Positions 49,558 through 53,220 of a stretch of 64,000 nt of DNA are shown here, piece after piece. The position numbers and the translations under genes are program-made. Source of the stretch: Nitrospinales bacterium (lineage in GTDB: Bacteria > Nitrospinota > Nitrospinia > Nitrospinales > JAJDAT01); NCBI GenBank assembly GCA_038154245.1, contig JAYOZP010000002.1:114928-178927 (forward strand). The letters run 5' to 3'. Below the pieces are notes generated by a model. The model was not told where the DNA came from. It worked only from the letters and a program-made list of their open reading frames with translations, and searched no databases. Every line of letters starts with the position of its first letter. The stretch's first letter is position 1.

Positions 49558-49707
49558 ATATATTTCAAATAGTTATTTAGGAAAAAAATACTATAAGCAA
49601 CATTATAATCATTTGGTTGGTAGGTTAAAATTTGGTATAGTTTAATATATTGCGATATTCATAAGTTATTGGTAATTAGGCTCTAATTTTAGTTTGGGAG
49701 AGCTCAT

Positions 49708-50097
49708 GTGAAAAATCGTCTTCATGTAATCGATCAAGAATTTGAGCTTGTTCGCACCGACTGGTTAGCCGAATCTACACCCCACTTGGTTTTTTCAAGC
49801 CCAGATCAAGCTCTCGATTTTCTTCGAAATGTTTATAGCGGCAATCCCAGCAACTCTGAAATTTTGCGAGCTGCATTATCCGAAGTTTCTCCAGTAGAAT
49901 ATGTGAATGCATTGGGGGATTCACATATTCTATTTCAACTAGCAGCCGAATTGACTAGCGGCCGTTGGAAAATAATATTGCCATGGTCTTATCCAAAACA
50001 GCCTCCAGTGGTTACTTCGTCAAGCTCTCCAACTCCAAATCAAGTAGAACAAGCGGCAAAAAGTTCTCCTCCTCCAAAACAAGAAGCAAAAGAATAA
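49708..50097 (+). CDS. Hypothetical protein, cassette gene A (ends at an in-frame TAA)
   Basis: GTG start with a GGGAGAG SD. 129 aa: a globular N-terminal part, then a Pro/Ser-rich linker. See the next feature. Confidence 0.55.
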   Translation: MKNRLHVIDQEFELVRTDWLAESTPHLVFSSPDQALDFLRNVYSGNPSNSEILRAALSEVSPVEYVNALGDSHILFQLAAELTSGRWKIILPWSYPKQPPVVTSSSSPTPNQVEQAAKSSPPPKQEAKE

Positions 50098-50358
50098 GAG
50101 ACGGAAGAAGAAGGTATTTCTGAAGAAGAAGCGACCGCTCAAGCCGAAGCTTTAGAGGAAAGCGCTAAAGACGGCTCTCCAGTTTGTTCGCAATGTTCCC
50201 AAATGGAACCCGCCGCAGAACCCAAGAAAGAACCGGCGCCTGTTCAAGAAGAACCGGAAGACGAAGTTGCTGTAGCGCAAGCGGCAACCTTAGATAAAGC
50301 GGCTGAAGACGGAACTCCAGTTTGTTCAGAATGTTCTGGGATGGACGATAGCGTGTGA
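50098..50358 (+). CDS. In-frame continuation of gene A after TAA: acidic tail with two PVCSxCS repeats (readthrough product, split gene or recent pseudogene)
   Basis: 86 sense codons stay open in the same frame as gene A, with no ATG/GTG/TTG at the beginning. They encode a duplicated 24-aa unit, AQAEALEESAKDGSPVCSQCSQME / AQAATLDKAAEDGTPVCSECSGMD. Confidence 0.5.
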   Translation, partial: ETEEEGISEEEATAQAEALEESAKDGSPVCSQCSQMEPAAEPKKEPAPVQEEPEDEVAVAQAATLDKAAEDGTPVCSECSGMDDSV

Positions 50359-50381
50359 TTAAAACAACCTAAAGTAAATCT

Positions 50382-51038
50382 ATGCCAAAACTAAAATCAG
50401 AAACTATCATCAAGACAATTAAATCTCTGGTTGGAAACGACGAAAATAATAAAGTATATGCTGTTCTAGATGCCGCTCGAAAGAAGGATATTTACCATAT
50501 CCTCGATCCAGATAAACATCGCGATGAGGCTTATATATTTGAGCAGATCCACCGTGAGAAATGGTTTCCAGAGTTACCGTGGTTTAAGGAATATAGTCGT
50601 TGCATTTATCCACTTAAAGGAAAAATTCCAAAAGTACTTTTAAAGGCCACACCTTATTTAGCGCGGATTGATTTAGACAGTTCCTTTTGTCGATGGTTGT
50701 TTAACGAGTGTTGGGGAGACAATTGCGGAATTTTTTTTATTTCCCAGGCTTCAGACGATCAATTATTTCACCATTTTAAAAAGTTACTCTTAGCGAAAAG
50801 CGAATCAGGAGAATCGCTTTACTTTCGCTATTACGACCCACGGGTTTTTCGGTCATTTATCCCGTCTTGTTCTACGGATCAATTGAACGTCTTTTTTGAA
50901 CTCGTAGAGCGGTTTATTGTTGAGCACGATTTTGGGAAAACTGCAAAAAGCTATCAGATTTTCGAATCTAAATTGGAGGTTGTTCCCATAGAACTAAAAC
51001 CCAAAAAATCTGCCTTGGTAGGATCTGATCGAAAGTGA
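50382..51038 (+). CDS. DUF4123-domain protein (T6SS effector adaptor Tap/Tec-like family), cassette gene B
   Basis: VYAVLDAARKKDIY, PYLARIDLDSSFCRWLFNECWGDNCGIFFISQASDDQLFHHFKKLL and LYFRYYDPRVFRSFIPSCSTDQLNVFF follow the DUF4123 consensus as I remember it. Confidence 0.7.
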   Translation: MPKLKSETIIKTIKSLVGNDENNKVYAVLDAARKKDIYHILDPDKHRDEAYIFEQIHREKWFPELPWFKEYSRCIYPLKGKIPKVLLKATPYLARIDLDSSFCRWLFNECWGDNCGIFFISQASDDQLFHHFKKLLLAKSESGESLYFRYYDPRVFRSFIPSCSTDQLNVFFELVERFIVEHDFGKTAKSYQIFESKLEVVPIELKPKKSALVGSDRK

Positions 51039-51042
51039 ATTC

Positions 51043-51804
51043 ATGTTGGTCATTCGCGATGAGCAAATAGAAATCTTTGAAGAAATTTTAGGCTTTGAAT
51101 ATCGAATGATCCGACACCTACAGCAATATTTCTCCTTGCCCAGTGAAATGCTGGGAGAGGGACAAATACGGAAAATTATCCAGTATGGAGCGGCGCGCGC
51201 GGAAGATTATGGTTTTCCTGGTTCTCGTGAAAAATGCGTCTATATCAGTTCAATGATGTTGTTGGGCAGTGATTTTGACAGGGACATTCAACTGTCTTGG
51301 GCAGTGCAATATTTGAAAGACTGGACGATTAAAGATTCCTTCAAACGAAGCCAAAAATTCTACGACATTGTTCTGGCTTATTTGGAAAAAGTAGCTGGTC
51401 CAAAAAACGAACATTTCATAAGAGCGTTGGTAAAAATTCGCGACTTAAATATTCGGTCTTTGCCGGAATCGATCGCAAAGAATTTTGATTCGAGCATCTA
51501 TAATCTGCTAACGGATATTTATCCGGAGAAAAGCAAAGATCAGGGAAAACAGGTTATGGATGAATTAATTCGACGCGGCCGCTTGTCGGCCCGTGAATAT
51601 GGGTTAACGAGCTATAAAAACGTTTGCGTATATATTGGGATGATGTTCATATTGGGCAGTGGATTCGACGACGATTTTCAATTTCCTTGGGCTTATAAAG
51701 TTTTAAATGACAAATCTTTAGCGGATCAGGACGCCAAAGCCGAGCGGCTTTATAAATTAGCCATGAAACTATTAAACCGGACATTGGCGCGAACAAATTC
51801 TTGA
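51043..51804 (+). CDS. Hypothetical protein with internal tandem duplication, cassette gene C
   Basis: Two about 80-aa halves share A(E/R)(D/E)YG...CVYI..M..LGS.FD.D.Q..WA...L.D. The gene starts 4 nt after gene B ends. Confidence 0.6.
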   Translation: MLVIRDEQIEIFEEILGFEYRMIRHLQQYFSLPSEMLGEGQIRKIIQYGAARAEDYGFPGSREKCVYISSMMLLGSDFDRDIQLSWAVQYLKDWTIKDSFKRSQKFYDIVLAYLEKVAGPKNEHFIRALVKIRDLNIRSLPESIAKNFDSSIYNLLTDIYPEKSKDQGKQVMDELIRRGRLSAREYGLTSYKNVCVYIGMMFILGSGFDDDFQFPWAYKVLNDKSLADQDAKAERLYKLAMKLLNRTLARTNS

Positions 51805-51818
51805 TCGAGGTGTAACCA

Positions 51819-53156
51819 ATGGGCTGCTGCTGCGGCGATGACAATGGTCAGGCTGGTAATTTGAGGGTTGGTCCTGCGCCTCAAGGTCAGGCTCAGGGGA
51901 ATTGTGGTCAAGCGCCCCCACCCCCACCGGTAAATCCAGTAAGAATTAGAGTTCAAGTTCCTCCAACTGACTCGGTCAGAGGGACGGATGTGACAAATTT
52001 TCCGGTACCCAATAATATTGCATTTGAAACTAATAGCGGAGCTCAAGATTTAGGCGCGAACCCTCCTTTGGTGGTAGTCCGCAATACTTCCGATTTGCTT
52101 GTAGAAATTGAAACCAACCCGGCCAATCAAGCCGATCGAATAAATTTAAATATTACGGCTGAGTCCGGTACATTGAATGCTGTTCCTGCATTCAATGTTG
52201 GAGCTGGAACCTTGGAGACTAATTCTTGCGGCCATTTCCAAGTATCAGCGACAAGCGCTGACGGGGCGACGGTCATTTATTTAAATCTGATTATTGTGGA
52301 TGTGGTAGTTACTAATCCAGTTGTTAACACTTTTAATCAAGCTGTAATTTTTTCGGCAACAGCGCGAGAAGCTACTTGTAAACTTTACGATACCCGAATG
52401 GGACCTGCTCCGCAGTATGCCGATGTTGGGACTTTTTCTATTGAAGCCCAAGCTGATATTCAACTGGTAGTTGATGGAAACCCGGCTTTGGCTGCGTATT
52501 GCGATGGGATTCATATGGGGTGGACAAATAACCTTCACCGAACAAATGGCGGCGTAACTGTAGATGCAACCTATGACGGAGGGCGTAGAGTGGTAGAAAG
52601 GGTGCCAGTGCCTCAACCTGCATTGCGCAGAGGACAAACCATAGATAGCGCTGTAACCCCTATTGTCGATTTAGGGATACCCACGTTGGACCGTGGATTA
52701 AACAGGGCCGATAATGGTGGGGATACGGTTTTTTTAAACTGGAATCAAGAGGTTCCCAATACAGGCGACAGAAGAACTATTTCGAATAAAGATAAGCCAA
52801 ACGTTACTTTTCCAATAAGACACCCTGCAAGCAATACCTCCTTTATTAGACGCGTTAGAGGAAGTATAGATTTTAAGCTTTTTCTGCTTGCTTATAGCAA
52901 CGATGCGCCTTTCAGTTTTGTGGCCTTCGGGCATTTGGATTGGACACTTCAATATAACTGTGATTTCGCCCTTACGAGCTTTAATTATAGAATGGGCCAG
53001 TCAGCAGCAAATACAGGGCAACTGGGAGCTACCGATAATGGTTCTACCGTTAATGCTACAGTATTTCAAGGTATTCCGCATGGCCAAGAAGCAAGGGCCG
53101 CAGGATGTGAATTACGGCCTCCGGTATACCAGAATTTAGTATTGGATTATAATTGA
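51819..53156 (+). CDS. Hypothetical 445-aa protein starting MGCCCG, cassette gene D
   Basis: Good SD (GAGGTG, 6-nt spacer). N-terminus MGCCCGDDNGQAG, then a Pro/Gln/Gly-rich linker. No signal peptide or TM segment. The lines I counted are 48-57% GC, versus 28% (one line of gene B) and 37% (one line of gene C). Confidence 0.65.
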   Translation: MGCCCGDDNGQAGNLRVGPAPQGQAQGNCGQAPPPPPVNPVRIRVQVPPTDSVRGTDVTNFPVPNNIAFETNSGAQDLGANPPLVVVRNTSDLLVEIETNPANQADRINLNITAESGTLNAVPAFNVGAGTLETNSCGHFQVSATSADGATVIYLNLIIVDVVVTNPVVNTFNQAVIFSATAREATCKLYDTRMGPAPQYADVGTFSIEAQADIQLVVDGNPALAAYCDGIHMGWTNNLHRTNGGVTVDATYDGGRRVVERVPVPQPALRRGQTIDSAVTPIVDLGIPTLDRGLNRADNGGDTVFLNWNQEVPNTGDRRTISNKDKPNVTFPIRHPASNTSFIRRVRGSIDFKLFLLAYSNDAPFSFVAFGHLDWTLQYNCDFALTSFNYRMGQSAANTGQLGATDNGSTVNATVFQGIPHGQEARAAGCELRPPVYQNLVLDYN

Positions 53157-53198
53157 CCTTATTTTTAAAAATTAAAGTCCAATTGTCGGGGAGATTTG

Positions 53199-53220
53199 CC
53201 TCTCCCTAGGCAGGGAGAGG
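53199..53220. terminator. Hairpin between convergent gene D and rplT (possible bidirectional terminator)
   Basis: Perfect 9-bp stem CCTCTCCCT / AGGGAGAGG with loop AGGC. There is no adjacent U-tract, so terminator function is uncertain. Confidence 0.4.

Follow-up and report, generated by a model that had tools for sequence, protein, structure and literature searches.

A DUF4123-centred gene cassette of a Nitrospinales bacterium is probably a type VI secretion-type cargo-loading module with a split adaptor

A compact cassette of four plus-strand genes, here called A, B, C and D, was analysed in a 64-kb stretch of the Nitrospinales bacterium contig JAYOZP010000002.1 (the window, to which all coordinates without a locus name refer). 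We consider it likely that this cassette is a type VI secretion system (T6SS)-type cargo-loading module, composed of a motif carrier (A), a split Tap adaptor (B and C) and a cargo protein (D). We favour this reading because B is a DUF4123 protein, C homologues occur in T6SS clusters, the tail of the A frame shares a motif with VgrG and PAAR proteins, A, B and C are kept together in related genomes, and D has the leader and the family relationship of a cargo. An earlier note on this DNA had offered, as the first of two alternatives, an orphan effector module of the T6SS whose cargo and co-factors are novel, and the same observations support that alternative. The cassette contains the following features.

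49708..50097, plus strand: gene A as translatable; GTG start, 129 codons and TAA; alpha/beta N-domain at about residues 6-97, then a disordered Pro/Ser-rich linker
50095..50097, plus strand: in-frame TAA inside A; GAA (Glu) in orthologues, one G-to-T change
50098..50358, plus strand: rest of the A frame; 86 in-frame codons, acidic, untranslated barring readthrough or assembly error
50161..50196, plus strand: tail motif copy 1, SAKDGSPVCSQC; motif shared with the C-termini of VgrG and PAAR from T6SS loci
50299..50334, plus strand: tail motif copy 2, AAEDGTPVCSEC; seven residues short of the end of the A frame
50382-51038, plus strand: gene B, 218 aa; short DUF4123 (Tap/Tec-type) adaptor, about the size of an N-lobe
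51043-51804, plus strand: gene C, 253 aa; duplicated all-helical protein with LGSxFDxDxQxPW once per half; proposed cargo-side half of the adaptor
51819-53156, plus strand: gene D, 445 aa, starting MGCCCG; directly after C; predicted cargo
51819..51929, plus strand: D leader, residues 1-37; MGCCCG, a low-complexity stretch, Cys29 and a poly-Pro run; Shine-Dalgarno (SD)-like GAGGTG upstream
52029..52901, plus strand: D core, residues 71-361; homologous region in the L009 cargo protein of 888 aa is residues 471-803

Gene B, a short DUF4123 adaptor

Gene B had been read as a DUF4123 protein from the letters alone, and a hidden Markov model (HMM) search confirmed it: B matched PF13503 (DUF4123) with an E-value of 9e-21 and 74.7 bits, above the cut-off of 25.8. 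B also matched Tla1, the chaperone of Tle1, weakly. All aligned members of the B family (31/31) matched PF13503, and neither the B sequence nor the B profile found anything among the PDB sequences.

B contains 218 aa, and its family profile, at 182 positions, is near the size published for the Tap N-lobe (about 177 residues; PMC11582642). The DUF4123 partners were mostly 170-199 aa, with a B-type size range of 170-220 aa. In the alignment of the short DUF4123 subfamily, one His is invariant and two Cys are nearly invariant (C74, H131 and C163 in the B of the window).

Gene C and its T6SS neighbourhoods

C had been described as an internally duplicated helical protein, and both parts of the description were upheld, the duplication by the family alignment and the all-helical fold by an AlphaFold2 (AF2) model with a predicted local distance difference test score (pLDDT) of 88.9. 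No family for C exists in Pfam, NCBIfam or PADLOC, and a sequence search of C against PDB found nothing. Homologues form a small set in the protein database, and 80 loci were found in the genome scan, spanning Planctomycetota, Acidobacteriota, Myxococcota, Gammaproteobacteria, Bacteroidota and other phyla; the closest loci of that scan belong to the metagenome-assembled genome (MAG) Nitrospinia bacterium OFTM166 and to an uncultured Nitrospinota bacterium. That A, C and D could not be placed in any family, as the earlier note had put it, stands for Pfam, NCBIfam and PADLOC, but needs correction for C, which is a widespread uncurated family and not a unique protein.

Two clusters with precomputed Pfam annotation place C within T6SS loci. 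The gene order in locus L007 is VipB-Hcp-TssE-TssF-TssG-ClpV-VgrG-DUF4123-C-484aa-325aa-PAAR, and locus L008 is a T6SS cluster of the Bacteroidota type which ends with PAAR-C. Many of the loci L014-L091 likewise have the module within a T6SS cluster, and the VgrG-B-C-cargo form is present in, for instance, Sorangium, Cystobacter and Pseudoduganella. With iterated HMMs seeded from these two clusters, we labelled the open reading frames (ORFs) of 64 loci in which a C-family gene was called (loci of the genome scan and a few fetched earlier, the window included). A T6SS core gene was located within 10 kb in 48/64 loci, VgrG or PAAR within four genes upstream in 41/64, and DUF4123 was present in 39/64; Pfam spot checks bore out the VgrG, PAAR and DUF4123 labels. 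The usual place of DUF4123 between vgrG or PAAR and the effector, which the earlier note gave for described loci, was found in homologous loci of other phyla but not in the window. C is always directly upstream of a variable gene, and orphan C-cargo pairs far from any spike or T6SS gene are common even in phyla that bear T6SS.

In a Terriglobia MAG (locus L063, 9377-10753), one 458-aa ORF contains a DUF4123 domain (48-165, Pfam) apparently fused to a complete C domain (209-454). By Foldseek, one half of C could be placed on the Tap3 adaptor chain 9r8g_B of the Tke5-Tap3 complex with a probability of 0.84, a template modelling (TM) score of 0.33, 113 columns and an E-value of 3.7. No match with an E-value below 0.7 was obtained against PDB for the models of C and A, and Tap3 was the sole suggestive one. 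From the L063 fusion and the gene order, and with a structural match that is weak, we infer that B and C would together form a split Tap adaptor.

Half-size C genes of 123-135 aa with one repeat were also found in T6SS loci (L040 11824-12231, L060 12912-13283 and L090 10001-10375), which suggests that a single C repeat may be the functional unit.

Gene D, the cargo leader and cargo swapping

The ORF call agreed with the description of D as a 445-aa protein starting MGCCCG. A word-indexed search returned D only, and its standing as a complete orphan was overturned by profile comparison with an uncurated cargo family, E888, whose members are in loci L009, L045, L048 and L076. The D core aligned to the E888 family by hhalign with a probability of 91.9%, an E-value of 6.8e-7, 277 columns and 26% identity, and five control families scored below 3% against D. 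By profile comparison, D is predicted to be a shortened protein that is remotely related to the E888 cargo family. No family was found for D in Pfam, NCBIfam and PADLOC, and D and the E888 profile found none among the PDB sequences. Nine cargo and partner proteins of relatives gave only a sub-threshold HEAT match in Pfam.

The genes directly after C encode a disordered N-terminal leader which is rich in Pro, Ser, Thr and Lys and contains Cys. A Cys at residues 15-50 was found in 96% of the post-C genes and in 44% of the background ORFs, and a Cys at residues 2-10 in 52% and 12%, respectively. Both features occurred together in 25/50 post-C genes compared with 61/958 background ORFs (Fisher p 1e-15). 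In Nitrospinota, the readable cargo proteins all start with MG(C/F)(C/L)CC (4/4), and SD-like sites back those starts. The MGCCCG start is thus no peculiarity of D, as it had seemed, and we regard the MGCCCG...C29 of D, on its sequence pattern, as the probable local form of a leader that is common to post-C cargo.

A comparison of gene neighbourhoods indicated that A, B and C travel together in related Nitrospinota with the cargo swapped. The A-B-C unit is kept in four or five separate loci of related Nitrospinota, three or more of which lie at the epimerase-rplT site, and the cargo differs as follows.

This window, after C: 445 aa (D)
Locus L005 (GCA_029261715.1), after C: 592 + 336 aa
Locus L009, after C: 888 + 303 aa
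JGI contig, after C: 444 + 88 aa
Locus L011, at a different site, after C: 597 + 314 aa

The pairs E592/F336 and E888/F303 were found again after C genes in other phyla. The second genes of the relatives (303-336 aa) have lipoprotein-like N-termini, from which we infer that they may encode immunity proteins to toxins acting in the periplasm.

Two further observations concern these relatives. A lipoxygenase gene (PF00305, 605 aa) is located between the epimerase gene and A in two related Nitrospinota (L005 6565-8382 and L095 38-382), next to the effector cassette. The window lacks this gene, whose product is unusual for bacteria. The C-cargo-partner module of L011 (GCA_024449935.1, JAANSS016217826.1) is on a 5.6-kb contig beside NIR_SIR and RadC, not beside rplT, and may be a bacterial sequence within a large, perhaps eukaryotic, assembly, in which contig numbers run into millions.

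The spike-tail motif and gene A

The VgrG proteins encoded upstream of B and C contain a linker of about 100 residues followed by a short terminal motif, for example ...TTMQQAAKDGTPFCEECEKAKK, and PAAR proteins in other loci share the same ending, for example ...AATLKAAAEDGTPFCEECSGTNQ. The consensus at the extreme C-terminus of VgrG and PAAR proteins encoded just upstream of B and C in other phyla is AAxxGxPFCExC. The A tail contains two copies of this motif, AEALEESAKDGSPVCSQCS and AATLDKAAEDGTPVCSECSG, both of the pattern AAxxGxPVCxxC, or AAxxGxP(F/V)CxxC in a more general form.

The strict pattern GxP[FVL]CxxC gave 23 matches in 1397 ORFs, of which 18 are located at the C-terminal end of a protein labelled VgrG or PAAR and the other five in A-type proteins. 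When nine of the VgrG- or PAAR-labelled carriers were compared with Pfam, eight were true VgrG or PAAR proteins, and the ninth (an ORF of locus L085) contained neither domain. Through all six frames of the window the motif occurs exactly twice, both times in the A frame. A docking motif at the C-terminus on a flexible linker is thus present in the A frame, as two copies after a disordered Pro-rich linker, and A holds the gene position that VgrG or PAAR has in other loci. On these features A is predicted to be a rare free-standing carrier of the spike-tail motif.

The L085 ORF (3543-4268, 241 aa, from a Polyangiaceae MAG) has the motif at its end (AAEQGVPFCEECEKAR), and DUF4123 and C come directly after it. 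Pfam found neither a VgrG nor a PAAR domain in it, and ORF calling is uncertain on this high-GC contig. The ORF may represent another type of stand-alone motif carrier. Its N-terminal part was considered as a relative of the A N-domain and rejected, as the motif alone aligns.

Many tails carry one Cys or none. A zinc or disulphide bridge from the tail CxxC to the leader Cys was considered and is unsupported: the covariation is weak (10/17 vs 2/8) and phylogenetically confounded, and can be taken as a lead only. The conserved His and Cys of B, together with the Cys of the tail motif and of the cargo leader, hint at a possible shared metal site.

The N-domain of A was modelled by AF2 with pLDDT of 84-92 at residues 10-97, and below 50 at residues 98-129. 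Foldseek of the A model against PDB found nothing, and neither part of A matched a family in Pfam (including Phage_GPD, Phage_base_V and PAAR_motif), NCBIfam or PADLOC; a DUF3039 or zinc-finger assignment for the tail was discarded as a weak match below threshold. An exhaustive HMMER search with the N-domain over 1.84 billion representatives gave five matches, of which three were repeat-protein noise. The two real relatives were one orthologue and one 38%-identical protein with the same N-domain, linker and two-motif layout. In the divergent A-like proteins (36-38% identity; the 38% relative and a metagenome one), a short DUF4123 gene is directly next.

Proposed loading mechanism

In the proposed T6SS-type module, B as a short adaptor with only an N-lobe would bind the tail motif, by analogy with Tap proteins. 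C, the cargo-binding half of the adaptor encoded apart, would bridge B to the cargo leader. D would be the cargo, with a disordered Cys-containing leader followed by a core remotely akin to another cargo family. The B-C-cargo complex would then be tethered to the spike for export. A would supply the docking motif in trans, and its N-domain would presumably sit on a spike or other carrier encoded elsewhere. Any specific role for the N-domain is held with much lower confidence than the module itself.

Several points weigh against this reading. No T6SS core gene, vgrG or PAAR could be detected in the 64-kb window, as the earlier note had also stated for vgrG, hcp, PAAR and tss genes, and literature searches on a T6SS in Nitrospinota gave no relevant result. 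The likeness of C to the Tap C-lobe is structurally weak (E 3.7), and for the N-domain of A the HMMER search of 1.84 billion representatives and the Foldseek search of PDB detected no relative, either in T6SS proteins or in a solved structure. The predicted contacts of B with the motif and of C with the cargo are drawn from analogy and gene order. In Bacteroidota loci, C comes directly after a motif-bearing PAAR gene and DUF4123 lies further downstream; given this order, the tail motif could contact C rather than B. There is no immunity-like gene beside D and no ORF between D and rplT, whereas the relatives have partner genes. Finally, A is cut off in this genome ahead of both copies of the motif.

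We might also speculate that A represents a new T6SS accessory class, a spike tail acting in trans, in which the motif is duplicated on a free-standing protein with a novel N-domain. This is tentative, and we regard it as possible but somewhat doubtful. If true, A could plug cargo onto spikes which have no tail or, in a lineage without T6SS, could couple a Tap-cargo complex to another export route. Alongside it there would be a widespread unrecognised loading system in non-proteobacterial phyla, with a split Tap (B and C), an AAxxGxPFCExC tail and a Cys-containing cargo leader.

Interruption of gene A and alternative explanations

The earlier note had described A as a globular N-domain with an acidic CxxC tail. 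The N-domain and the tail are indeed present in the frame, but A is not one open gene of 216 codons: a TAA follows 129 codons, and both CxxC motifs (50161-50196 and 50299-50334) are downstream of it. The orthologues contain 212-218 aa in an unbroken frame, with GAA at the site of the stop codon. The identity of A to these intact orthologues is 81-85% before the stop and 84-91% in the segment after it, without frameshift. Only one other assembly (L001) covers the stop; it matches the window at 100% identity across 21 kb and so adds no independent evidence. Because the codons after the stop are as conserved as the rest and no frameshift is found, the TAA would be a very recent change, a polymorphism or an artefact of assembly. 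With TAA in place of GAA, A loses both copies of the motif, so the module may be recently disabled in this genome.

The cassette could also be a decaying T6SS auxiliary island, in which A is a pseudogene, the immunity partner has been lost and nothing is delivered. Consistent with this, the nonsense codon in A is before both motifs, and no gene follows D where the relatives have a second gene of 303-336 aa with a lipoprotein-like N-terminus. In locus L092 (1-2300), a divergent A-like gene is succeeded by a short DUF4123 gene and then by about 950 bp without ORF, C or cargo gene; the locus looks like an eroded module, and since it keeps the A-B pair without C or cargo, such modules do erode. 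However, the reading frames of B, C and D are complete and closely spaced, with SD-like sites, and the 86 codons after the stop in A are as conserved (84-91%) as those before it (81-85%), with no frameshift. We consider decay of the whole island rather unlikely.

A use independent of T6SS would be a new context for DUF4123. Here Nitrospinota would have no T6SS, A would replace the spike, and its N-domain would link B, C and cargo to another export route or an intracellular target. The absence of T6SS genes within 64 kb and the empty literature search on Nitrospinota agree with this, as does the N-domain of A, which is unrelated to VgrG and PAAR and very rare (two clusters in 1.84 billion representatives), in a protein occupying the VgrG/PAAR gene position. 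But B, C, the motif and the pairs E592/F336 and E888/F303 are all shared with loci inside T6SS clusters, orphan C-cargo pairs are common in T6SS-bearing phyla, and an absence over 64 kb says little for a multi-megabase genome. We judge this use to be quite improbable.

It is an equally long shot that A is a cytosolic decoy or holding platform, which parks two B-C-cargo complexes or regulates loading by competing with the genuine tail of the spike. A protein that bears the motif twice in tandem on a single flexible acidic tail, and has no spike-like domain, would suit such a role. In these genomes, however, no motif-bearing spike gene is known as the competitor, and the idea is purely conjectural.

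It is very unlikely that MGCCC is a eukaryotic lipidation signal (N-myristoyl-Gly2 with S-palmitoyl-Cys) that makes D a host-targeted, membrane-anchored effector: the MG(C/F)(C/L)CC start of all four readable Nitrospinota cargo proteins, the missing immunity gene of D and the lipoxygenase gene beside A in two relatives would fit, but leaders elsewhere start with MPxGC, MCxxGC or MSK...CP without Gly2, so that the shared feature is a Cys in a disordered leader and not a myristoylation site, and in the relatives the MGCCC cargo comes with lipoprotein-like partners, as is usual for antibacterial immunity proteins.

Genomic context and sequence signals

The ORF list places the cassette between an NAD-dependent epimerase gene (48601-49557) and rplT. 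The layout had been described as four tightly packed same-strand genes with gaps of 23, 4 and 14 nt, preceded by a 150-bp AT-rich leader and closed by a perfect 9-bp hairpin, and each of these items was recovered: the gaps from the ORF coordinates, the leader from a G+C content of about 0.32 in 500-base windows over it compared with about 0.38 nearby, and the hairpin at 53199-53220.

49558..49707, plus strand: AT-rich leader, 150 bp, 5' of A; SD-like GGGAGAG ahead of the GTG start of A
53199-53220, no strand assigned: perfect 9-bp hairpin with a 4-nt loop, CCTCTCCCT-aggc-AGGGAGAGG, between D and the convergent rplT
53241-53600, minus strand: rplT, one of the convergent genes rplT-rpmI-infC-thrS

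A run of six T begins 8 nt 3' of the hairpin on the plus strand, and a simple terminator scan made no terminator call for the hairpin. In a simple scan against shuffled sequence, the leader contained no promoter match above chance, and across the region the promoter-like and terminator-like sites were no commoner than in shuffled sequence.

The G+C content rises to 0.44-0.47 at 49750-50250 (linker and tail of A) and 51500-53000 (D), compared with about 0.38 in the flanks. Biased composition (Pro, Ala and Gly) and a foreign origin of the cargo are both compatible with it.

Elsewhere in the window, a transfer-messenger RNA (tmRNA) gene with the tag ANDYDIAVAA was found at 31287-31643, followed up to about 33850 by some 2 kb with a single ORF of at least 120 aa. 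tmRNA genes are common integration sites.

Comparison with known systems

The cassette is no new kind of system; we read it as DUF4123-mediated T6SS loading with three novel features. These are absent from Pfam and NCBIfam and were not found described in the literature examined, namely the split adaptor with an uncurated partner, the AAxxGxPFCExC tail with the Cys-containing leader, and the detached tail in Nitrospinota.

How the spike recognises unrelated effectors is, to our knowledge, understood only in part, and nearly all work on it has been done in Proteobacteria. The loci compared here indicate a loading grammar of a VgrG/PAAR tail motif, a DUF4123 protein with only an N-lobe, a duplicated helical partner and a Cys-containing cargo leader, spanning Planctomycetota, Acidobacteriota, Myxococcota, Bacteroidota, Gammaproteobacteria and Nitrospinota. 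It offers a practical cargo finder: a leader-bearing gene after a C-family gene is a candidate effector, and the cargo families checked had no Pfam annotation. The Nitrospinota form indicates that the docking motif is separable from the spike; if functional, motif and spike would be separable modules, usable to load chosen proteins onto spikes.

Auxiliary T6SS effector modules lie away from the main cluster, normally with their own vgrG or PAAR gene. The cassette is similar to them as a compact adaptor-effector unit at a housekeeping locus with its cargo swapped between related genomes, but contains neither vgrG nor PAAR.

Through its DUF4123 protein B, the cassette is like Tap-1/TecL of Vibrio cholerae and Tap6/Tap14 of P. 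aeruginosa. Tap/Tec adaptors are bilobed, with a conserved N-lobe and a variable helical C-lobe (PMC11582642), and Colautti et al. (2024) reported that the N-lobe of Tap binds the helix-turn-helix at the VgrG C-terminus and the separate helical C-lobe binds the effector (PMC11582642). The related loci have the same arrangement of a VgrG with a C-terminal motif on a flexible linker of about 100 aa, then the adaptor and then the cargo gene. Unlike Tap/Tec, B has only the size of an N-lobe, with the effector side apparently on the separate duplicated C, and in Nitrospinota the docking motif is on the free-standing A and not on VgrG.

The work of Burkinshaw et al. (2018), in the summary given by PMC10433429, concerns the chaperone TecT and the co-chaperone co-TecT with PAAR4 and TseT in P. 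aeruginosa, and loading on PAAR tails and co-chaperones are treated in the same source. By that description, the cassette is similar in having a DUF4123 protein with a second accessory protein, and as a PAAR extension can bear cargo there, several PAAR proteins here carry the motif. C is different in that it is internally duplicated and sometimes fused to DUF4123.

Wang et al. (2023) described accessory domains of vgrG loci (MIX, DUF2345, LysM) with several encoding forms in six families (PMC10673891). The tail motif behaves like these domains, as one element that is fused to VgrG, fused to PAAR or encoded in an independent gene. It differs from them in being a motif of about 20 residues outside their six families, the stand-alone form of which has its own novel N-domain.

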